From a virus (taxonomy: Duplodnaviria > Caudoviricetes): a stretch of 64,000 nt of DNA. This document shows, piece by piece, positions 10,928 through 30,822 of the stretch. Where the stretch lies: positions 224,001-288,000 of the IMG/VR virus record IMGVR_UViG_3300021400_001148; one strand, 5' to 3'. Made by a program: the position numbers and the translations under genes. The notes beneath the pieces were generated by a model. It saw nothing but the letters and a program-made list of their open reading frames with translations, was not told the origin of the DNA and ran no database searches. Position 1 is the first letter of the stretch, and the number at the start of each line of letters is the position of its first letter.

Positions 10928-12058
10928 ATGGCAACTAGATTAACTCCAGAAATACAGAAGATATTCAGACAATTCAAAAGTAGTGTCGGTGCACCCATTC
11001 GTTCAATTCAAATGACCGATGAACAACTCTGTGACTTGTTTGATATGGCCAAGGAAGACTATGCTTCATATGTCCAATCGTGGCTTATAAAAAACCAGTG
11101 GGCCGCACTCTACGGTAAGGGAGCCAGTAATACTGATATGGCCTATGCGCTTTCGGTGAGAAGCCTCGACATGGCTAAACAATACTCCTATTGGTTTTCA
11201 AAGGAAGTGGGACTTCAGCAATCAGGCCCGTGGGAACTCAAAAAAGATTATATACAAATTGAAAAGGGTAAACAGGATTATTTGATTCCGGCTGGAAGAC
11301 AGGTAAATAGAGTTATGTATGTCAACCCTCCAACATCACAGGCAGCGCTTTTTGCTAACTATGCCGGTCTCGATATTGGGTTTGGCGGGGGATATGCACA
11401 ACTTGGTGGCGGAGCATATGGCCCCATTGGTGGCTTTTTTACTGCACCTGCTGCCGATGTTGCTTATCTTGCTACAGACCTGCAGTATAAAAACAGGCTC
11501 CTTAAAGGTGATTTGGTATATAGTATGACTGCCGGCCCTGAGGGAACACATATTTTACACCTAATGTCAACTCCCGGGTCCAAACTCTCATTTAATTATA
11601 TGGGTGGATATGGTGGTTTGATTGGTCTTGTTGGCTGTCAGGTATGGTATACATATTATGAAACATCATCTGCTGAGGAGGCGGAGGAATGTATGAGAGA
11701 AAATTCTGATGTTATTATAACGCCAGACCAAGTTCCATTGGCTGAAATGGATTTTGAACTTCTTAATGCACCCACCAAAACTATAATCCGTCAGTTGTTT
11801 GTTGCCAAAGCAAAAGAAACTCTTGGTATAACCAGGGGTACTTACAGTGGTAAAGTTATGATACCCCAAGCAGAACTCACTATGGATTACCAAATGCTTT
11901 TGACACAAGGCAAGGAAGAATATAAGGAGACAATGGAGACGCTCAAAAAACGCCTCGAGGAAATGAACCCTGAAAACTATCTCAAGAAGCAGGCTGAAAT
12001 CACTAATGCTAATAGAGACATTCTTTCCGGCGTACCCCTCGGAATTATGGTTATCTAA
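10928..12058 (+). CDS. neck/head-tail adaptor protein (gp13-like)
   Basis: GAPI..I.MTDEQL N-terminus; AKAKE.LG..RG.YSG and terminal PLG motif; next to portal. Confidence 0.7.
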   Translation: MATRLTPEIQKIFRQFKSSVGAPIRSIQMTDEQLCDLFDMAKEDYASYVQSWLIKNQWAALYGKGASNTDMAYALSVRSLDMAKQYSYWFSKEVGLQQSGPWELKKDYIQIEKGKQDYLIPAGRQVNRVMYVNPPTSQAALFANYAGLDIGFGGGYAQLGGGAYGPIGGFFTAPAADVAYLATDLQYKNRLLKGDLVYSMTAGPEGTHILHLMSTPGSKLSFNYMGGYGGLIGLVGCQVWYTYYETSSAEEAEECMRENSDVIITPDQVPLAEMDFELLNAPTKTIIRQLFVAKAKETLGITRGTYSGKVMIPQAELTMDYQMLLTQGKEEYKETMETLKKRLEEMNPENYLKKQAEITNANRDILSGVPLGIMVI

Positions 12059-12100
12059 TTACTTTTCACCGTTTAACGTTATATTAAAAGAAAAAAAATA

Positions 12101-14140
12101 ATGCCTACTATATTTCAAAACTTAAGCAGAGTACTCAATGGAGATAGAAATGTCCCCAAATCACAACCAGTTTCAAGAACCACCAATGTTTATAATCTCG
12201 GTTCCATGTCTCAAGGGAGTGATGTGATATTCAGTACCACAAACAAAGAAGAGTTTGAGGCAAAGAGGCTTGAAGCCCGCCAGCAGAAACTTATGTCAAT
12301 GCAGTTTTACAAGGCCGGGCTTGACAATGCTGCAAGGTCTGTAGAGGAATTCACCAATGTACAAATGATGTACCGTGATGCACAAATTATGGACACCATT
12401 ACACCAGAAATTGGTGCGGCGTTGGATATCTATTCTGAAGAGGCCTGTATGATTGGCAGCACTGGTAAAATGCTTATTATATCATCCAAGTCCGAGCGTA
12501 TTAAGGCTATTTTGGAAGACCTTTTTTACAACCGTCTCAACCTCCATATAATGTTACCAATGATTTGCCGTGGAATGTGCAAATGTGGTAACGATTTTAT
12601 GCTCCTCAATATTGATAAGGAAATGGGTGTTATTGGATGGATGGAATTACCTATTTTCGAAATAATCAGAACCGAAAATGGCATGACCAACCCTTATCAG
12701 GCTATTGGAAGTATTAACCAAAATGGTGAAATAAAAACAATGAGCCCACAGTTTCTCTGGCAGGCAAAAAATGGTAATCTTTCTTTCCACAATCTGCAGG
12801 TGGCTCACTTCAGAATTATAACCGATTCTACTTTCCTTCCTTATGGCGTGAGCCTTCTCCATAAAGCTAGAAGGTCTTGGAGAATGCTTTCCATGATGGA
12901 AGACATGATGCTGATTTACCGTCTCGAAAGGAGTATCGAACGCCGCGTGTTCAAGATTTTCACCGGCGACATTGATGAGGCTGATATTCCAACTTATGTA
13001 CAGCAGGTTGCAAATCAGTTCAAAAGGACTGAAATTATTGACCCTGAGACTGGGCAGATAGACCTCAGGAAAAATTTCCTTAGTGTTGATACTGATTATT
13101 TCATCCCGTTCCGTCAGGAAGACCGCGCAAGCAAAATAGAAACGCTTAATGCCGCAACAAACCAGACTTCAATGGACGACATTGAATATATGCGCGGCAA
13201 GATGCTTGCAGCACTCCGTGTGCCAAAGGCATTCCTCAATTTCCAAGACACACAGGGCAAGGGTCAGAATCTTTCCTTTATGGATGTCAGGTTTTCAAGG
13301 ATGATAAACAGGGTGCAGCAGGCGCTTCTTATGGAACTTACCAAGGTTGCAATCACCCATCTCTATCTTCTTGGCTTCAAGGATGATATTACTAATTTCA
13401 CCCTTACAATGCATAACCCCTCTTCTCAGGTTCAAATGCAGGAACTTGATATGCTTGGGAAGAAAGTACAGACGATGCAACAGGTTTTGGCTGACCCCGG
13501 GAACGGTATTCAGATTTATTCATACCACCGCGCCCTTAAGGAAATTATGCAACTCTCCGACACTGAAATTGCGGAAAATCTCAATGAGATTCGTCTTGAA
13601 AGGGCTCTTGCGGCAGAACTGGAGAACACGACACAAATTATTAAGAAAACCGGCATTTTTGACCCGACAGACAGAATATATGGTGACCCTAATGCAAAAT
13701 ATGACTTCTCCCAGAATCAGGAAGGCGGAGAAGGTGGAATGGGTGGCGGCCCGATAGGTGGTGATGTGGACTTCGGTGGCGAAGATGTTGACGAACTCGG
13801 TGCTCCGGGCGAGGAAAGTAACGATGTGAACGGCTCCGAGGAAAGTGTTGACATGAGTAACGCCTCTAATGTAGATTCCGGAACACCTCTCCAAGAAAAC
13901 AGACAAAGGATATCAAGGTCACATTTTGATGAATATATAAAGAACCTCGTTCCTTCTGCCAGTGCAGGGACAAGTCTCGGAAGAGTTAAACTCGTTGAGA
14001 AATCTTTTCTCATAAATGAAGAACTCAATTCAATGTCAAAGCAACTCGACAAACTTCTCGAAGGTGTTTCTCTTGAAGATATTCACGATGATGAGGAGGG
14101 TGAAAAGACAGAAGTTGAGAAGGCACTTTTAGATGAATAA
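12101..14140 (+). CDS. portal protein (gp20-like)
   Basis: PEIGAALDIYSEE, EDMMLIYRLERSIERRVF, DYFIP.R and ALRVPKAFL motifs. Confidence 0.95.
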   Translation: MPTIFQNLSRVLNGDRNVPKSQPVSRTTNVYNLGSMSQGSDVIFSTTNKEEFEAKRLEARQQKLMSMQFYKAGLDNAARSVEEFTNVQMMYRDAQIMDTITPEIGAALDIYSEEACMIGSTGKMLIISSKSERIKAILEDLFYNRLNLHIMLPMICRGMCKCGNDFMLLNIDKEMGVIGWMELPIFEIIRTENGMTNPYQAIGSINQNGEIKTMSPQFLWQAKNGNLSFHNLQVAHFRIITDSTFLPYGVSLLHKARRSWRMLSMMEDMMLIYRLERSIERRVFKIFTGDIDEADIPTYVQQVANQFKRTEIIDPETGQIDLRKNFLSVDTDYFIPFRQEDRASKIETLNAATNQTSMDDIEYMRGKMLAALRVPKAFLNFQDTQGKGQNLSFMDVRFSRMINRVQQALLMELTKVAITHLYLLGFKDDITNFTLTMHNPSSQVQMQELDMLGKKVQTMQQVLADPGNGIQIYSYHRALKEIMQLSDTEIAENLNEIRLERALAAELENTTQIIKKTGIFDPTDRIYGDPNAKYDFSQNQEGGEGGMGGGPIGGDVDFGGEDVDELGAPGEESNDVNGSEESVDMSNASNVDSGTPLQENRQRISRSHFDEYIKNLVPSASAGTSLGRVKLVEKSFLINEELNSMSKQLDKLLEGVSLEDIHDDEEGEKTEVEKALLDE

Positions 14141-19117: not shown

Positions 19118-20563
19118 ATGAAAATACACACATTTCTCGATAAGTGTTGTACGATAGTTAAAGGGTCAAAAATTAATTTCGGCCTTAATCCTGTTGCAGA
19201 GATTAACATGGGGAGCCTGATAAGCCGGGCGTGCCTCCACTTCGATATCGACCATCTCAAAAATTTATATGAGGATAAGACCATTGCCAATCTAGAGAAA
19301 ACCAAGCATGTTTTAAAACTAACAAACTGTTCTTCTGTCAATATCAACGATGCCAGAAAGGTCCGCGCCGGTATAGTTAATGTTGACGAAAAGGAACGCG
19401 CTTCGTCTTTTGATGTTATTCTTTTCAAAATACCTAAAGATTTTGATGAGGGAAACGGTTTTAGTTTCAGGGATACATATTGGCTCTCCAGTAATGAGAA
19501 AAAATCCACTTCCGGGTGCAGTTGGTTTCAATGCAGAAACAATATACCATGGTTAGGGGAGGATGATATTTCTGGTGATACCCACTATTCAAACGGAATA
19601 TATGATGATGATTATCTTTATTCCGAGTATAAAAAATACATTGCCGGGGAGAAGTCTGAAATAATCGTTGCCAGCCAGCATTTTGACTACGGTGCTGAAA
19701 ATTTCAATCTTGACATTACTGACTATGTTAATGAAGTTATTACTGGAGAAACCATAGACCACGGACTCTGTCTCGCTTTTTCTCCGGATTATGAAACACA
19801 TCCGTACAAGGAACAAAAATATGTTGGTTTTTTCACTAACCACACCAATCTCTTCTTTGAACCTTATGTTGAGACAGATTATCAAGAATACATCAATGAT
19901 GACCGTGGAAAGTTTTACATCGGTAAGGAAAACCACCTGTATCTTTACTGTTCGATAGACGGTGAACTCAAAAACCTTGATTCACTCCCGGTCTGCACAA
20001 TAGACGGCATTGAGTATCCGGTACAGCAGGCGACAAAGGGCGTGTACTATGCAACCGTTAAAATAACCGACGCGGAACCAGAAACCATATTCTATGATAT
20101 TTGGAGTGATTTGTCTTTGAATGGCGAACCTATCGATGATGTAGAGATGGAATTTGTGGCATTACCCAAGTCTTCATATCTTAAAGTTGGGAAATTCATT
20201 GGGGAAAAATATGATGTTACCCCAACACTTTCAGGTATTAATGATAATGAGCCCGTTCGCATTGGCGATATACGAAGAGTTGATGTGGCTTTCAGAACGC
20301 CTTATACCATAAATTCATCGCAGATTTTCGACAAAGCAGAGTATCGAATTTATACAAAGGATGCCACGCGGGAAATCGATGTGTACGAGTATTCACCAGT
20401 CGAAACTGCATTTCTCAACAACTTTTTTGTTGTTGATTCAACAGAAATGGTGCCCGGGGATTACTTCGTGGATATTAAAATAAAAACCGGATTTGACACG
20501 AAGGTCTATAAGAATGTTCTTCGTTTTTCAATTGTGAGTAATGTCACTGAATTCTACAAATAA
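19118..20563 (+). CDS. putative virion structural protein
   Basis: 481 aa, beta-rich, F.LDITDYVN motif; TATTTATA at 19094. Confidence 0.6.
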   Translation: MKIHTFLDKCCTIVKGSKINFGLNPVAEINMGSLISRACLHFDIDHLKNLYEDKTIANLEKTKHVLKLTNCSSVNINDARKVRAGIVNVDEKERASSFDVILFKIPKDFDEGNGFSFRDTYWLSSNEKKSTSGCSWFQCRNNIPWLGEDDISGDTHYSNGIYDDDYLYSEYKKYIAGEKSEIIVASQHFDYGAENFNLDITDYVNEVITGETIDHGLCLAFSPDYETHPYKEQKYVGFFTNHTNLFFEPYVETDYQEYINDDRGKFYIGKENHLYLYCSIDGELKNLDSLPVCTIDGIEYPVQQATKGVYYATVKITDAEPETIFYDIWSDLSLNGEPIDDVEMEFVALPKSSYLKVGKFIGEKYDVTPTLSGINDNEPVRIGDIRRVDVAFRTPYTINSSQIFDKAEYRIYTKDATREIDVYEYSPVETAFLNNFFVVDSTEMVPGDYFVDIKIKTGFDTKVYKNVLRFSIVSNVTEFYK

Positions 20564-20586
20564 GTGGTATCTGTACCATTTTTAAG

Positions 20587-20615
20587 AAATGTACCACCTT
20601 TTGGGTGGTACATTT
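20587..20615. terminator. bidirectional terminator
   Basis: aaatgtaccacc-ttttg-ggtggtacattt between convergent genes. Confidence 0.8.
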
Positions 20616-21571
20616 TAGTTTATTCTTACTGTCTGGCTTAATATTGTGTTTAGGGGGTAGTCAGTAAGTCTTCTCACATCCTCACCAACAACAGGAGGTA
20701 ACTGTGCCCACCGGTGCTGGTGCGTGAGAAATGCTGTCTTGAATATATTCAAAAACTCCAAAAGAGTGTCACCATAAGGAACTTGATGAGCCTTTTTAAT
20801 AAAGCGGTCCATTTCTTCGTCAGAAATCAGTTTCTCGGGGTCATTGACTTTATATATGTCCCTCGAATCGGTACCAATAAGATTTATCTTATCCGCAACT
20901 ATATTTGCGACACTTTCATAACCGCGTTCCTCCTGTTCCTTCCTCGTTTCCATTTGTGTTTGAAAATCTTCTGAAACATCGGGGCCAATGTTTCTAAAAT
21001 GTTTAAGTTTGATGAAAGCGGGATGTTTTCCGTTAAACTCAAACTCTGAACTATCATTGGTTAGAACCGTTGTATTTTTGACACCGCAGCGTACATGAAT
21101 TTCATCTTCTTTCAAAATAATATCGCTATCTTTTCTACCGAGAACAGCAACATCTGTTTTGTCCGGTAATGTACCGGGTGTCTCTCTTTTATATTCGGGA
21201 TTTTCGTCTGCACCAATCAATGTACCGCTTAAAAGCCTCGTTGATGTAAAATAATCATTATTGTACATAAACTGTGGCTGCGCGATAATTGGTCCCAAAT
21301 AATAGCGTTGACTATGCGATTCATCCAGTGCTTGGTTTATGATAAAAACCCCTTCGCCCACCTTTGGTATGACATGAAAAAATTTGGGAAGAAATGGAAA
21401 AGCGTAATGTGTGACATTATTTCCACCAATGGCAACGGCTGTTTTGTCATTTTCCATTGCAGCGATTTTCTCCCCACTATCTTCGTATGCAATAGCAACT
21501 TTAATCCTGCCGGCACCAGTTTCATCTTTAGTGCTGACAACTCGTCCAAATCTTATTTCTGGTTTTTTCAT
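20615..21571 (-). CDS. baseplate central spike-like protein (gp5/gpV OB-fold)
   Basis: G.V.S.KD..G.GRIKV, PKVGEGV and C-terminal H.H; start reassigned to MKKPE because the upstream codons belong to an inserted element. Confidence 0.7.
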   Translation of the reverse strand: MKKPEIRFGRVVSTKDETGAGRIKVAIAYEDSGEKIAAMENDKTAVAIGGNNVTHYAFPFLPKFFHVIPKVGEGVFIINQALDESHSQRYYLGPIIAQPQFMYNNDYFTSTRLLSGTLIGADENPEYKRETPGTLPDKTDVAVLGRKDSDIILKEDEIHVRCGVKNTTVLTNDSSEFEFNGKHPAFIKLKHFRNIGPDVSEDFQTQMETRKEQEERGYESVANIVADKINLIGTDSRDIYKVNDPEKLISDEEMDRFIKKAHQVPYGDTLLEFLNIFKTAFLTHQHRWAQLPPVVGEDVRRLTDYPLNTILSQTVRIN

Positions 21572-21887
21572 GATATCTACCGCAAGGAAACCCACGGCTT
21601 TAGCCGTTGGGAGGAATTGCGGTTAACTCCTTTTTTTAGTTTATTATTATATTTATATTAACAAAGCTCTTTGATATTCGGTTCGGCGGGGCTGTCTGCC
21701 CGCCGGTAAAATCAAAACAGCATCCGCTCAAGGCACCACGCGCATCGCGTGGACAACAGTTTTTCAATGCGGAAGATTTACCACCCGCTCTCGGCTCCGC
21801 CTTGAGCGGCAGGGCGTTGTCAATCGCCCAATCGATGGGAGCCTCGGGCTTCCGTCAAGCCCACGAATTCATTCGTGGGTAATTGAC
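21572..21887 (+). mobile_element. non-autonomous IS200/IS605 mini-element (PATE-like) with TnpB omegaRNA-like scaffold, 316 bp
   Basis: LE hairpin gaaa-cccacggct-tt-agccgttggg; RE hairpin caag-cccacgaat-tc-attcgtggg-taattgac; inserted after TCAT; no ORF. Confidence 0.8.
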
Positions 21888-21891
21888 AATA

Positions 21892-22221
21892 TTAAACTAC
21901 GATTCCAAAAAGTGTTACTATTCCAGCGGGCGTTGGTACTGCAATCTGTACCTGCCCGTTTTTCAAAAGTTCTTCATTTTTAGCATTGATTGAAGCCCAT
22001 GCAAAACTAAGAGTTAGATTGGGCGACCCGTCGAGGTTAGGCCCAATCGGAATGCCGGCAGCAGACAATTTTTCCGTTACTTTTTGCATTTCCCTAATAG
22101 CAGAAAGACCGGGCCTTGCTATGGCACCACACTGTAGTAAAATAGGCGGTATCATAGGGAATGCTATTTGTGACTGGGTAAAAAGCCCATTAATTCTTTG
22201 TAAAAGTGTATCTATTTTCAT
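21892..22221 (-). CDS. hypothetical protein (baseplate region)
   Basis: 109-aa ORF in tightly packed operon. Confidence 0.7.
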   Translation of the reverse strand: MKIDTLLQRINGLFTQSQIAFPMIPPILLQCGAIARPGLSAIREMQKVTEKLSAAGIPIGPNLDGSPNLTLSFAWASINAKNEELLKNGQVQIAVPTPAGIVTLFGIVV

Positions 22222-22224
22222 AAA

Positions 22225-23988
22225 CTAACAATCTGTTTCTCCCGGGGTATTTTTAGTTTCCAATATATCTGCATGTGTAACATTGTCAATATTACCAATC
22301 AAAGTAGTTGACGATGGTAAATTAAGGGATAAGGTACAATTTCCAACCAAAGCAAGAATAATATCTTTATATTTCTGTATTCTTTCGAGTAGTATCTGTG
22401 TTACATAATTAAGAATGAGGCTTTTGATTTTCTCATATGCAACCCCGAAAAGTTTTTCAATTAAGAAATCCATAACCTTCATTATAATAGTTCCAAGTAA
22501 CTTGTTGAAGGTGGAGAGAAAATCCAGTTTTGTTTCAGGAAACTTACCATTCGCAAAAGAGTAGTCAATCAAATAAATCAAAACAATTTTCGGTGTTATA
22601 ACAGATTCAACAATTTTTTTCACAAAAGCAGTGATTAAACTCATTGCTTTGTTTTTATAGTCGTCTGCACTCCAGTTACTGTAATTAGTTTCCAGAACTG
22701 CCTTTATGTTTTCATTGTCAGTAAAATTGTTTATAATCTCACCACCAGTCAACTGTTCTATTGACTCTTTGATAATGGTTTTCTGTTCTTGGAAAGTAGA
22801 TTCAGATGTAAGTCCACTGATGTTTGCCATTATACTGTCAATTTCATCATCAGACAGGACGCGCCCACTAATCGTATCGCCAGTTGATGTAATAATGCCT
22901 TTTCGCCTCAGTTCTGCGTCCCTGATGAGATTGTTGTATTCTTCATTGGAAAAAGAAAAATAACAATCCTCTATCTCAGTCTCATTTCCCTCAATAATTT
23001 TAGTGATAACCTCATTGACTGTAGTTTCCAGAATTGAATCGGATAATGAGATACTTCCGTTTACATTTGCGACAAGACTTATCGACCCATTTGCAATTAT
23101 ATCGAGAATTCCGGAAATAATTGGTTTTGGGTAAAGAAGGCGGATATTATCGAGGAAATCTTTGTTGAAATCGTATATAGTACTAAACTTTACAACATCA
23201 TTTTTTCTTTTCCGGTACCTCTCCGGGTCCAACAATATTGTAAAATTATTAGTGGCATCATCAAATTTAATTCTGAACAGTTTTGAAAATGTTTTTCCTA
23301 AAGCAGAAACATCATCACCTTCTATTACTATATCATTATAACTTTGGGAGGTACTTTCTATTACTTTATCTTTGAAATCACCGTTCCTGGTATCCCAAAT
23401 GGTTTTGCGGTTGCTTTTTTGCATTTTATCAGCATCAACCATGTTGATAATATACCATAGGAAAGTGTTGAGGTCACCACTTTTCCATACTTCACTCGGA
23501 CTGCAATCATTAGTAACATCACCATAAAAATGACTGCCGGCGGGGTCAGTTGGATTTGACTTTGAGAAAAGGTTAAAAATGTCAAGGATATCAATGTTTA
23601 TTTTGAAACCTTCACCAGTTACTTCTTTTCCAGAAATAATCCTCGTATCCAGAAAATTATCACCTATTATTGGGTTATTTGAGCAACTTACAAGCCCATC
23701 GAGTACACCTAAAATTGCAAGACGGATGGTCTTGTCCATAAAAAGAAGTGAGTCTTCGCCCACCGATTGTATCATATTCGTAAGTATGTTGAGGAGTTCA
23801 TCATAACTAACTCCAGCAATGTTCAACAAATTGATGGTAAGACCGAGTGCAGAAGAAATATTAAGTAGTTCAGCCGACCCCGTTCTGTTTATTTTAAAGA
23901 GGGTCGGCAGGTTATCAGCCAGCAATTGCGCAACCGCAATCGTTGACATTGTGTTTGTTAAACTACTATTTAGTCTTGGGTCAAGCAT
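22225..23988 (-). CDS. hypothetical helical protein (baseplate region)
   Basis: 587-aa ORF coupled to neighbours. Confidence 0.75.
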   Translation of the reverse strand: MLDPRLNSSLTNTMSTIAVAQLLADNLPTLFKINRTGSAELLNISSALGLTINLLNIAGVSYDELLNILTNMIQSVGEDSLLFMDKTIRLAILGVLDGLVSCSNNPIIGDNFLDTRIISGKEVTGEGFKINIDILDIFNLFSKSNPTDPAGSHFYGDVTNDCSPSEVWKSGDLNTFLWYIINMVDADKMQKSNRKTIWDTRNGDFKDKVIESTSQSYNDIVIEGDDVSALGKTFSKLFRIKFDDATNNFTILLDPERYRKRKNDVVKFSTIYDFNKDFLDNIRLLYPKPIISGILDIIANGSISLVANVNGSISLSDSILETTVNEVITKIIEGNETEIEDCYFSFSNEEYNNLIRDAELRRKGIITSTGDTISGRVLSDDEIDSIMANISGLTSESTFQEQKTIIKESIEQLTGGEIINNFTDNENIKAVLETNYSNWSADDYKNKAMSLITAFVKKIVESVITPKIVLIYLIDYSFANGKFPETKLDFLSTFNKLLGTIIMKVMDFLIEKLFGVAYEKIKSLILNYVTQILLERIQKYKDIILALVGNCTLSLNLPSSTTLIGNIDNVTHADILETKNTPGETDC

Positions 23989-24380
23989 TATTTTATAGTG
24001 TAAACTTCAGGTTTATCAGCCTCAGTAAGGCTTTTCTTAATTTTGTTAAAATCAAGTGTTGTTGGTTGTTTAGTAAATGCTTTGTCAGCAAGAGTTTCTT
24101 CTACACTACCATTATGAGAGATAATTTCAGAGAGAAGTTTTGCTATATCAACCTTTGTTTTGATTGACCTGTCCTTATCACCAAGAAAATCGTGCATGAT
24201 TTTACCGTATTTGGCTTTTTCATCCATTGAAAAATCTTGGCCCATTGTAGTGCTCTGGGAGATTTTGTTTATTTCTTCTTGAACCTGGTTCAGTTGTTCG
24301 CAGGCTTGAATATAAGTCTCTTGAAGTAATTCAGCGACAGTATCTTTTGAATTCAGTTTTATCTTAACTTTATTTGCCAT
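23988..24380 (-). CDS. hypothetical protein
   Basis: Start MANKVK; the ORF-track extension to 24401 lies in the inserted element. Confidence 0.7.
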   Translation of the reverse strand: MANKVKIKLNSKDTVAELLQETYIQACEQLNQVQEEINKISQSTTMGQDFSMDEKAKYGKIMHDFLGDKDRSIKTKVDIAKLLSEIISHNGSVEETLADKAFTKQPTTLDFNKIKKSLTEADKPEVYTIK

Positions 24381-24394
24381 AAATAACCTTTTTC

Positions 24395-24559
24395 TTGACA
24401 TACTCCCACGGATGAATCCGTGAGATTCTTGATTTTAAACGCACCCGCCGCTGACCACACGGTCATTGGTCTTACAAGCACTCACCAATTCGTCGATGTC
24501 CCGACGAAGTACGGGATTCATCCCACCACTAAAGTAGTGGGTTTTCTCCCGGAATTATT
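24395..24559 (-). mobile_element. non-autonomous IS200/IS605 mini-element with omegaRNA-like 3' part, 165 bp
   Basis: Minus strand: LE aaaa-cccactac-ttta-gtggtggg; RE gaat-ctcacggat-tc-atccgtggga-gtatgtcaa; inserted after TTAT. Confidence 0.8.
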
Positions 24560-24572
24560 ATAAATATTCGTC

Positions 24573-25298
24573 CTACAAATCTTCAATCATTTTCTTCTTC
24601 AACTCATAGTAGGCGAACTTATATTTCTTCATGTTGTCCCTCACTTCCTTTGTAGAAAGAAGCGTGTTTTCACGCAGGTAATAGAGGACTTTGGATTTGT
24701 TAAGTTTGTTAGAGCCGTCATCTGTAAGTATACCCTCCCAATTGTTAAAGAGTTCACAAAGCACACTCCCTACTTTTCTTTCATTGTCAGACAAATGTAT
24801 TGAAGAATCATTCATCATTTCATCAATTTTTTTCGCAATCCCGCTTGTAAGGTCAGAGGCTAAAGTATTCGAATCTGTATTGGTCGAGTAGTCTATGCTG
24901 TTCTGGAACTTCTCGTATGTATCATCATACGGCTCGTTGCGTTCAATTTTTTTCTTGAACTGGTTGATTTTGTAAATCAATTGGTTTTTGCAGATTGTTC
25001 CATAATATGAATACGCCTTATGATGTTTTTCCGGGTCATATTTATCCATTTTTGTGGATAAGAAAGACATTATGTCATTGAAGGTTTCATCAAATTCTTC
25101 TTCCGGAACGAAAAGTTTGTATCTGCGGATAATTGATTCTATCATCTTAGTGAAAGCAGGTTTCAGTATTCCGTTGAATATTTCATTTCGTCTTTCAACA
25201 CTATCTGTTTTAAGGTATTCTTTTACAGCATTTTCTTGCACCTCTGAAAAATACATCTTCTCTGTTTCACTCTTGGGTTTTCTGCCTTTTTTGGCCAT
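24573..25298 (-). CDS. phage sigma factor, late (gp55-like)
   Basis: YF...E.AV..Y, K.D...K...AYSYYGTICKN region-2-like motif. Confidence 0.6.
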   Translation of the reverse strand: MAKKGRKPKSETEKMYFSEVQENAVKEYLKTDSVERRNEIFNGILKPAFTKMIESIIRRYKLFVPEEEFDETFNDIMSFLSTKMDKYDPEKHHKAYSYYGTICKNQLIYKINQFKKKIERNEPYDDTYEKFQNSIDYSTNTDSNTLASDLTSGIAKKIDEMMNDSSIHLSDNERKVGSVLCELFNNWEGILTDDGSNKLNKSKVLYYLRENTLLSTKEVRDNMKKYKFAYYELKKKMIEDL

Positions 25299-25329
25299 TG
25301 TTGATAAAGTTTTATCTTTAATTTTATTA

Positions 25330-25422
25330 ACAACCGCCATCCACGAATTTAATCGTGCTTCTAAGCACACCCCGAAGGGCCTTTCCACTTTGACGTTGAA
25401 GGCCAGCCCTCTGGACTGGCCA
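25330..25422 (-). promoter_or_regulatory. structured 5' leader of the sigma gene
   Basis: GC-rich multi-hairpin island including ggccagtcc/gggctggcc and a cUUCGg loop, after TATTTAT at 25424-25430. Confidence 0.45.
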
Positions 25423-25431
25423 AATAAATAA

Positions 25432-26211
25432 TTAGTTCTTAGGAGAAAATGTTTTTTTTCTATCTTCTTTGAAGAAATATTCTTTCTGTGCCAAATCCAA
25501 ATACCATTTAACCTCTTCTTCGGATAGCCCGGAATATTTCTCTACAAGACTTCCCTTGCGATTCATTCCGTGTTGGTACCCTATTTTAGGTATGACGTAT
25601 GCTTTTTTGGAATTGTTCAAGGTTCTTAAAAGAAATTCAGTCCAAAAAGCAATCTTAATACTGGGTTTTAGGCCACCAACGGTCACAAAGTCCGTGGTTT
25701 TGAAAACAGAACCGGTCAGGTTAAAGTCTGAATAATCCTTAAGAGCATCGATTGATAGATAACCAATATTATCCGAATATGCCGCCGAAAGGCCAATTTC
25801 ATTCGCTAAACCAACTGGAACCTTTTCACCAGAAGAAAGGTCGTATACTTCAGTCACAGGAAGAAATACCGAGACATCTTGAAGTGTTTCGAGATGCTCC
25901 TGAACATTCTTGAACCAGATTTTTGTGTAACTGTCATCAACTTCAAGGATGGAGAAGTAATCAGTCTGGCAGGATTTGGCTGCAGCATTGATTTGTGAAC
26001 AGAAATCAGAGACTTCGTTTTCAAGGAAATTTATTCTTCCCTCATATGTTATCTGTATTTTTTCATATTCTTTCAGAACTGCTTTTGGACCAACCACGGT
26101 AACAGAGTAATTTTCATTGTTACTGGGTACACTAGATAAAGCGTTTTGATAGAACTTACTAAGTTCGTCACTGTATTCGTGAACTGGCACTATAATGGTG
26201 ATGTTTTTCAT
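25432..26211 (-). CDS. glycosyltransferase, GT-A/GT2-like
   Basis: ITIIVPV N-terminus, N.A...TDYF.ILEVDD, F..VGG. Confidence 0.75.
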   Translation of the reverse strand: MKNITIIVPVHEYSDELSKFYQNALSSVPSNNENYSVTVVGPKAVLKEYEKIQITYEGRINFLENEVSDFCSQINAAAKSCQTDYFSILEVDDSYTKIWFKNVQEHLETLQDVSVFLPVTEVYDLSSGEKVPVGLANEIGLSAAYSDNIGYLSIDALKDYSDFNLTGSVFKTTDFVTVGGLKPSIKIAFWTEFLLRTLNNSKKAYVIPKIGYQHGMNRKGSLVEKYSGLSEEEVKWYLDLAQKEYFFKEDRKKTFSPKN

Positions 26212-29691: not shown

Positions 29692-30822
29692 TTATTGATT
29701 GTAGGCAACGCTGTTTTCTACGACCCATTTAGAGTTCTTGTATTCGTTGAGATTCCGACTGTTGGTGTAACTCATAGCAGAGCGGAGGTAGTCAATTTCG
29801 TTTTCAACCCACCCACTGAGATTGAATTCCACTCGTTGGTAATAAGTTTTTCCCTCGGATGTCTTAATTTTCGCGTTAGGATTTATTTTTGCCTGCGCTC
29901 TTTTCGAACTCATTCCATAGAACTCTTTCCAGATAGAAAGTTTGTTTTCCTTAAAAAGTGCGTATGCTTTTCCAAAGTCCTTTCTTTGTATTTCCCTTCC
30001 GTAAGTAAAGAGGGTTTTAAATGGTCTGAAGATTTTCTTACCATTCACATTGAAATAGGAGTTACCATATGTGGTTTTCCCTGCGGACTCAATGGCTTTA
30101 TTGAAAAGCCCACCTATCATGACATAATCAGCATAAATGAGGGCTTTCTGTATGTCTCGATATCCGCGAATGCCGCCGTCAGCAATGATTTTACATTTTC
30201 CCCCAAGTTTTACTTTGTATTCATAAATCTCTTTAATCAAAGAAAAACTTGGAAAATAAATACCAGTATTGCTGGCTGTAAGGCAACCACTTCCAGAACC
30301 GATGGTGCAGCGCACATAATCCACACCGGCGTTTTCATATGCTCTATATGTTTCGGGATTGGCAATGTTGCCAGTCATAATGGTAAAGAAAACCCCGGGG
30401 AGCCTTTTCAGTTGTACGCAGATGTCAAGAAGACTGGTCATATGACCGTTTGCGATATCAATACACACCTTATAAGACTCATTGGTGCGTATCCAGCCTT
30501 GTGGCCCGTGTGCATCAAGGAAATCCCTGACTGCATCCTCTGCTTCTTGTAGCGAAATGGCAAAGAAGCAATTATATTTCCGAGAGAGTTCAATCCTTTT
30601 TTTTATTGGTACAACAGTTCTCGGAATAATGGTGTTAATCTTGTTATTAACGAAATCTTCTATGTTCTCTTCATCAACAACACTATCCATAGGAGAAGCA
30701 AAGATAGGAAGCATTCCATTTTCGTCAAAGGGGTTACATTCCTTTCTTGACCTGATGTCGGTAACAACTTCCGGCATAATGGATACATCATTGTATCCTA
30801 ACTTGATATCGTGTTCTTTCAT
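29692..30822 (-). CDS. IMP dehydrogenase/GMP reductase family oxidoreductase
   Basis: SPMD.V, IDIANGH, GNIA, IGSGSGCLT, IIADGGI, FYGMSS and LRSAMSY motifs. Confidence 0.9.
   Translation of the reverse strand: MKEHDIKLGYNDVSIMPEVVTDIRSRKECNPFDENGMLPIFASPMDSVVDEENIEDFVNNKINTIIPRTVVPIKKRIELSRKYNCFFAISLQEAEDAVRDFLDAHGPQGWIRTNESYKVCIDIANGHMTSLLDICVQLKRLPGVFFTIMTGNIANPETYRAYENAGVDYVRCTIGSGSGCLTASNTGIYFPSFSLIKEIYEYKVKLGGKCKIIADGGIRGYRDIQKALIYADYVMIGGLFNKAIESAGKTTYGNSYFNVNGKKIFRPFKTLFTYGREIQRKDFGKAYALFKENKLSIWKEFYGMSSKRAQAKINPNAKIKTSEGKTYYQRVEFNLSGWVENEIDYLRSAMSYTNSRNLNEYKNSKWVVENSVAYNQ

Follow-up and report, generated by a model that had tools for sequence, protein, structure and literature searches.

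Transposons of the IS200/IS605 family such as IS608 and ISDra2 carry subterminal hairpins on their top strand, recognize their cleavage sites with 4-nt guides, insert 3' of a short motif without duplicating it and are excised precisely (PMC3201880, PMC8612924). In IS608, the guides are DNA tetranucleotides located 5' of each hairpin foot, from where they read the cleavage sites (PMC3201880), and in this group the omegaRNA is encoded by the 3' end of tnpB together with the right end of the element (PMC8612924). Protein-free relatives are known from Geobacillus stearothermophilus, whose PATEs combine the end hairpins of a co-existing IS200/IS605 family with mobilization in trans and an omegaRNA region (Meers et al. 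2023, bioRxiv 10.1101/2023.03.14.532601); the same study states that PATE-like elements "often encode omegaRNAs", on which other factors would have to act in trans. Likewise, the stand-alone omegaRNAs of OMEGA systems are mobilized omegaRNA loci that have neither effector nor transposase (Altae-Tran et al. 2021, via PMC10691335), and homing into co-infecting phages has been discussed as a concept (PMC13565253). Here, we describe a 316-bp element at positions 21572-21887 of a 64,000-nt stretch of DNA (the window), which corresponds to bases 224001-288000 of the phage genome IMGVR_UViG_3300021400_001148. We conclude, with a probability of about 0.87, that this element is a non-autonomous, PATE-type IS200/IS605 transposon, derived by internal deletion from a TnpB-only insertion sequence.

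The source genome (354,809 bp, 41% G+C) has direct terminal repeats and is rated 100% complete, and searches with Pfam, NCBIfam and tblastn detected no TnpB and no Y1 transposase in it. In this respect, the element differs from the Geobacillus PATEs, which reside in a bacterial chromosome that also encodes matching TnpA and TnpB, as opposed to a complete 355-kb phage with neither. It also differs from them in that natural filled and empty alleles are documented. For the stand-alone omegaRNAs of OMEGA systems, action in trans has been shown and the genomes also hold effector loci, whereas the present replicon has no effector, and action of its RNA in trans would be a prediction. Compared with IS608 and ISDra2, the element has no tnpA or tnpB, its hairpin sequences are unrelated, and the right cut is located 8 nt rather than 10 nt from the hairpin. 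The target differs as well, being TTCAT here, TTAC in IS608 and TTGAT in ISDra2. Three IS1341-type elements that carry tnpB as their only gene (L054, L148 and L014, introduced below) share the target motif, homologous ends and a homologous scaffold with the same pseudoknot; they encode an intact TnpB (371-441-aa frame), whereas the window element keeps only the last ~225 nt, in which the frame has decayed. With stand-alone omegaRNAs and omegaRNA-bearing PATEs published, the element belongs to an already described kind. What is specific to this case is the combination of a complete, nuclease-less replicon with filled and empty alleles resolved at base-pair precision, which makes the idea of homing in trans testable.

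Element ends and copies within the genome

The element lies on the plus strand and contains no open reading frame (ORF) of a known family. It directly follows TTCAT (21567-21571), the target or transposon-adjacent motif, which is kept in the empty allele. The left end (21572-21637) consists of a putative DNA guide, GAAA (21587-21590), and an imperfect hairpin with a bulged T (21591-21611), enclosed by an outer stem (21579-21585 with 21617-21623); together with the T-run that follows (21631-21637), this stem resembles a top-strand terminator. At the right end (21856-21887), a putative DNA guide, CAAG (21856-21859), precedes a hairpin (21860-21879) and the terminal TAATTGAC, and the last bases of the element form the predicted cleavage tetranucleotide TGAC (21884-21887). 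Both hairpins form on the plus strand; GATATC.. at one terminus and ..TTGAC at the other are not inverted repeats of each other. The distance between the left cut and the foot of the left hairpin is exactly 19 nt, the same as in IS608 (PMC3201880).

An earlier reading of the sequence (the original prediction) had proposed a protein-free IS200/IS605 mini-element with both terminal hairpins, whose guides would specify a TCAT target and a TGAC end by the IS608 pairing rule. Both hairpins are found where they had been placed, and the proposed identity is borne out by the copies, the empty sites and the architecture of the ends. The pairing rule fits in part. On the left, GAAA against TCAT reproduces the IS608 right-end pairing GAA:TCA and adds one A:T pair. 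On the right, CAAG agrees with TGAC at positions 3 and 4, and the remaining positions are taken up below. Across relatives, the fourth position of guide and cleavage site covaries, with CAAG/TGAC here, CAAT/TGAA in the related locus L019, and GAAT/TCAA both in IS608 and in the sister family of this genome (the E family).

The genome holds four members of the family to which the element belongs (the A family): the window copy A; copy B at genome positions 11963-12276 (94% identical); copy C at 25588-25875 (87%), which has a 28-nt internal deletion; and copy D at 29736-30026, in which the same two ends surround a different interior. All four start directly after TTCAT and end in ..TTGAC (TTTAC in copy D), and their flanks are unrelated; no target duplication was seen at insertion. 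Because the copies share only the sequence from TTCAT to the flank, and natural empty alleles join 21571 to 21888, the boundaries of the element are exact to the base. The A copies differ by ~3% substitutions that are evenly spread; they are young and show no sign of selection on the RNA since insertion. A possible excess of conservation in the 3' 86 nt was dropped, as the count returned the same even ~3%.

Filled and empty alleles in nature

A search of viral contigs with the 318-aa neighbour of the element returned no relative, and empty sites were therefore sought in sequencing runs, by comparing contigs of four public runs with window positions 20000-25500. The stretch is present in gut metagenome runs from cattle, goat and sheep. 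Two contigs, one of 33,955 nt from cattle gut (X4) and one from another cattle-gut study (X5), are near-identical to this phage in the flanks and join 21571/2 to 21888/9, skipping 316 nt. The empty junction is the predicted one, with TTCAT followed by the right flank and the minus strand reading TAA, TATT, ATG. Related phages with an empty site at this position, on which the original prediction depended, are thus at hand in both X4 and X5. A goat-gut contig bridges the filled left junction. The two cattle-gut contigs also join 24394 to 24560, precisely skipping an E-family element at 24395-24559. The insertion is recent and polymorphic, since near-identical rumen phages hold the exact empty site. 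In X4, the base directly after TTCAT (window 21888), which would be position 1 of the predicted guide, is G instead of A; this may be plain strain variation.

An omegaRNA-type scaffold

Judged from its sequence, the interior of the element (21663-21887, plus strand) is an omegaRNA-type scaffold that descends from the 3' end of tnpB plus the right end and is complete in copies A and B, as the original prediction had proposed from structure. Support comes from profile homology (nhmmer), covariance-model matches, covariation and the fold. When three TnpB elements (L148, L209 and L224) were compared with a profile built on the interior, nhmmer gave E-values of ~1e-12 to 1e-13, and in each case the alignment takes in the last ~115 nt of tnpB and the right end. 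Protein-free copies in L262 and in a related phage (L018) were matched as well. A covariance model built from seven members retrieved the four phage copies as well as L170, L260, L165, L054, L019, L169 and L144. In a 16-sequence alignment, which was fitted to the model and represents only ~6 independent lineages, 94.1% of the cells are paired compared to 78.5% in shuffles, none of 500 shuffles reaching the observed values, and 30 of 44 pairs have changed on both sides, while controls with slid partners are 25-40% paired.

The region 21663-21905 folds at -101 kcal/mol; relative to dinucleotide shuffles, z is -6.3 for the plus and -4.5 for the minus strand. G-U pairs outnumber A-C pairs by 24:8 on the plus strand, which identifies this strand, in the sense of tnpB, as the folding strand. 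All of the inner stems that had been listed from the letters are present. Towards the 5' side, copies A and B substitute a long-range helix of their own (21724-21734 with 21799-21809) for two helices of the relatives. It encloses hairpin H1 (21736-21752), which corresponds to the ..NIAQRAS.. coding stretch of the L148 tnpB and shows compensatory changes across relatives in 6/6 pairs. The stem S3 (GGGC/GCCC, 21812-21829) follows, with a helix that is 98% paired and 3/4 pairs changed on both sides, and then the stem-loop S4 (21834-21856), with helices that are 95-98% paired and 5/7 pairs changed on both sides. A pseudoknot joins GTCAAT in the S3 loop (21819-21824) to ATTGAC, the last six bases of the element (21882-21887). 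It is 97.8% paired with three compensatory pairs and is kept even though it was left out of the covariance model, the variants being AAT:ATT, AGC:GCT, AAC:GTT and TTCAAG:CTTGAA. Prokaryotic omegaRNAs are described as having such a link between scaffold and 3' end (PMC13565253).

Rfam gave no family at gathering scores for the window as a whole, nor, in the surroundings of the element, at E up to 10, three weak matches being due to chance; the HEARO omegaRNA model, checked in the same way, gave no match at its gathering score or at E up to 10. By the rule established for TnpB omegaRNAs (PMC8612924, PMC10691335), the guide is predicted to be the 16 nt of right flank that follow the element (21888-21903); in the empty allele, these come directly after TTCAT.

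As a separate observation, a 2-nt CG insertion at 21739-21740 gives copy A an H1 of 7 pairs, where copies B and C have 6. The insertion is missing from contigs of runs X4 and X5 that span these positions, but these may stem from other copies.

A promoter-like box ahead of the scaffold

An AT-rich, promoter-like region (21646-21662, plus strand) precedes the scaffold and includes TATTTATA at 21650-21657, in the rightward orientation and at the place where the original prediction had put a promoter. The same box occurs 60 times in the genome, 46 of these occurrences being intergenic; within 120 nt upstream of a gene, it is found 32 times in sense and 14 times in antisense. From this distribution, TATTTATA appears to behave like a promoter box and is a candidate for one distinct from TAnnTTTG. 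The latter, a Bacteroidota-type -7 box, is what copies B and C carry at this position, in the form of TATATTTG, so that TATTTATA is specific to copy A there. In each of the three full A copies, a promoter-like box that points rightwards stands ~10-15 nt ahead of the structured RNA. Transcription from this box through the scaffold could yield an omegaRNA with the right flank as its guide.

One metatranscriptome contig, which is unstranded, covers 21803-22188. It runs from the upstream gene into the element and ends at 21803, a repeat boundary, and it is better explained by mRNA of the neighbouring gene than by an omegaRNA. A plus-strand hairpin followed by a T-run at ~21924-21965, noticed by eye downstream of the element, was not called by a terminator scan and is given no weight. 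We also observed TATTTATA upstream of tnpB in the Alloprevotella element L054, and within copy D.

Relatives that carry TnpB or TnpA

The original prediction called for a cognate TnpB in connection with a TCAT motif, and elements flanked by TTCAT or TCAT that encode TnpB were found. L148, on a metagenome contig, follows TTCAT and shares the GAAA guide and the left-end design, with compensatory changes in both stems; its open frame spans 393 aa (387 aa from the first ATG). L054, from an Alloprevotella metagenome-assembled genome (MAG), follows TCAT, has a left end that is 86% identical and 33 nt of right end that are 100% identical, and encodes a 441-aa TnpB. A full-length member of the E family (TTTAT target, 371-aa TnpB, TCAA end) is located at L014:3596-4890 (IMGVR_UViG_3300026549_001501), on the genome of a related jumbo phage; tblastx shows that the two phages have proteins in common. 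Accordingly, nuclease-bearing and nuclease-less phages of one lineage coexist in public data. For both OrfB_IS605 and the Cas12f1-like TNB domain, the proteins of L054, L148 and L014 score above the Pfam cut-offs. Little of such a protein is left in copy A: tblastn with the L148 TnpB gave no match to it, and with the L054 TnpB the last 23 codons align at E ~1, largely across the hairpin itself.

The right end is widely distributed. Its exact 28-nt pattern had no match in viral contigs, where shorter hairpin patterns matched, and the 20-nt right hairpin is present on >120 genome contigs, mostly of Bacteroidota and Ignavibacteria with some of archaea, and on >119 metagenome contigs. A Y1 TnpA gene lies beside the right-end hairpin in ~20 of the fetched loci, and complete IS605 elements with tnpA, tnpB and the right hairpin were recovered from a yak-rumen Bacteroidales MAG (L080) and a viral contig (L016). 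Among 151 sampled genomes from the family to which the Alloprevotella MAG belongs, the 150 others gave no match to the scaffold model (R1). From an ecological standpoint, IS200/IS605 elements move between rumen Bacteroidales and their jumbo phages.

Several observations weigh against the identification of the element as an internally deleted TnpB transposon. The right-end guide pairs imperfectly with its cleavage site, C:T and A:G being non-standard. Copy C has lost part of the scaffold, since the 3' arm of the long helix is removed by its 28-nt deletion, and copy D is mismatched in the right hairpin and at its end, so that some copies of the family are decaying. Furthermore, the polymorphism between filled and empty alleles does not by itself distinguish insertion from excision. 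The autonomous elements of the L080/L016 type share the right hairpin and differ in the left hairpin and in the guide and cleavage letters. No cognate TnpA could be tied to the exact ends of the element, whose hairpins have no match beside the Y1 genes of the Alloprevotella MAG. We nevertheless favour this identification at the probability given at the outset. More generally, a dense, gene-free structured stretch in a giant phage is usually a cut-down TnpB transposon and not a new class of RNA.

Proposed mobilization and possible use of the scaffold in trans

The element keeps the left end (with the TnpA hairpin, the 4-nt guide and the terminator-like stem), the promoter-like box, ~225 nt of the tnpB 3'-end and right-end region, from which intact relatives encode the omegaRNA, and the hairpin and cleavage site of the right end. 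Following the mechanism of the family, a Y1 (HUH) TnpA from the host or a co-resident element would bind both top-strand hairpins and excise the top strand as a circle, which would then be pasted 3' of TTCAT in single-stranded DNA. Any use of the omegaRNA would depend on a TnpB that is likewise supplied in trans.

The original prediction went further and proposed an active, RNA-only homing cassette. The omegaRNA would end ~16 nt past 21887, a TnpB from the host or from a co-infecting phage with a full-length element would cut empty genomes at TTCAT plus flank, and recombinational repair would copy the element in. We consider this possible but doubtful. The scaffold is complete in copies A and B and its covarying pseudoknot reaches the base before the guide, yet copies C and D are damaged, and the even ~3% substitutions among copies reveal no selection on the RNA since insertion. 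Similarly, the promoter-like box has the same place and orientation in the three full A copies, while the sole RNA contig (21803-22188) is unstranded and fits the mRNA of the neighbour. The complete phage genome has no TnpB, and the scaffold model was not found in the 150 other sampled genomes of the family of its sole bacterial carrier; on the other hand, cognate TnpB elements with the same motif exist, as do intact sister-family TnpB elements in related jumbo phages. Target alleles with TTCAT and a guide match occur in the wild, but the X4 empty allele has G for A at guide position 1, and empty alleles persist in nature. Precedent is favourable, as compatible effectors can use stand-alone omegaRNAs in trans (PMC10691335) and an omegaRNA is often part of a PATE (bioRxiv 10.1101/2023.03.14.532601).

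Somewhat less likely again is the broader scenario of a nuclease-less jumbo phage that carries about eight guide-RNA cassettes and borrows the TnpB of its host or of a co-infecting phage to cut insertion-free sister phages. If true, sister phages would be converted (non-restorative homing) or excluded, and the coexistence of both alleles in the rumen of cattle and goats would represent a snapshot of that drive. Irrespective of this, the locus offers a natural test bed: the same phage is available with and without an element at two sites (21572-21887 and 24395-24559), and the guide, the motif and a candidate TnpB of the L148 type are defined. Such a system bears on RNA-guided homing between co-infecting phages and on the use of a nuclease in trans by a replicon that has none.

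Placement at a start codon and other readings

The element had been described as inserted flush against a start codon. The position is correct: TTCAT is the reverse complement of ATGAA, with which the 318-aa minus-strand ORF 20615-21571 begins. It is, however, not special, as it follows from the target. ATGAA starts 79 phage genes, and these account for 79 of the ~180 TTCAT sites at which an insertion breaks no gene; placement at start codons is thus explained by the identity of the target with the reverse complement of ATGAA together with selection against gene-disrupting insertions. Among the other copies, D abuts the start of a 95-aa ORF and C that of a 47-aa ORF, while B abuts none. All A copies are antisense to the neighbouring genes, a bias that the target motif also explains and that equally fits the terminator-like left end, which in the sense orientation would stop the operon transcript.

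These features bear on the possibility that the insert has been co-opted for regulation, such that expression of the 318-aa gene is tuned by the structure of the insert, or by its outward signals, when it is read as part of the minus-strand operon. The insertion has replaced the entire 5' leader of this gene, the empty allele having an upstream stop 4 nt from the ATG, and the metatranscriptome contig at 21803-22188 runs from the upstream gene into the element. The antisense orientation of all A-family copies would also fit, but is already accounted for by the target motif and the terminator-like left end. Moreover, empty and filled alleles coexist in nature, other copies occupy unrelated contexts with only two or three of the four abutting an ORF start, and the insertion is not conserved in related phages, the L018 copy lying elsewhere. 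We therefore regard co-option as improbable, and retain the interpretation as a cut-down TnpB transposon.

Least probable of all is that the RNA is a minus-strand, IscB/IsrB-type (HEARO-like) omegaRNA whose 5' guide comes from this right flank: folding is good on the minus strand too (z = -4.5), an IscB element with an end hairpin of the same type exists (L021), and IscB omegaRNAs abut the right end (bioRxiv 10.1101/2023.03.14.532601), but what corresponds to the scaffold in L148, L209, L224 and L054 is the 3' end of tnpB on its sense strand, the 24 G-U against 8 A-C pairs favour the plus strand, Rfam HEARO is not matched even at E = 10, and the phage contains no iscB remnant.

The E family, neighbouring genes and further observations

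The sister E family has related hairpins, inserts at TTTAT, ends in TCAA and carries GAAT before the right hairpin, which are the letters of IS608. It adds at least five copies to this genome. Two of them measure ~270-290 bp and two are minis of ~165 bp; in addition, there are a left end and a right-end palindrome that each stand alone. The two larger copies (genome 348108-348401, plus strand, and 106361-106627, minus strand) still encode the last ~40 residues of an L014-type TnpB (tblastn 8e-8). One of the minis is the protein-free 165-bp element at window positions 24395-24559 (minus strand), which is located between ORFs 23988-24401 and 24573-25388, with TTTAT ahead of it and TCAA as its end; the other is at genome 217205-217371 (plus strand). 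The solo left end is at genome 66118-66197 (minus strand), and the solo right-end hairpin, extended to a 40-nt palindrome, at genome 43115-43154.

The window element sits between the minus-strand ORFs 20615-21571 (318 aa) and 21892-22221 (109 aa). Five minus-strand neighbour proteins had no match in Pfam or PHROGs, and the "spike" label previously attached to the 318-aa gene is therefore unsupported. A 481-aa plus-strand ORF (19118-20563), scanned against PHROGs only, had no match, nor did positions 20000-24000 when compared with GenBank phages by megablast. GC skew tracks the gene strand, and no replication origin could be read from it for the lagging-strand orientation rule.

Two further types of association were observed in related loci. 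In L021:3900-5500 (IMGVR_UViG_3300034684_000299) and in L020, a 426-aa IscB-like ORF with an HNH motif, on the bottom strand, has a left-end hairpin of the same type on both sides, which suggests that the hairpins recognized by TnpA in this family are common to IscB elements too. Genes that adjoin the TnpB elements of L209 (645-1436) and L224 (524-850, minus strand) continue across the right-end hairpin, on its opposite strand, and their products terminate in ..PTNEFVG(L); here, the insertions have supplied new C-terminal codons and a stop to the adjoining gene.

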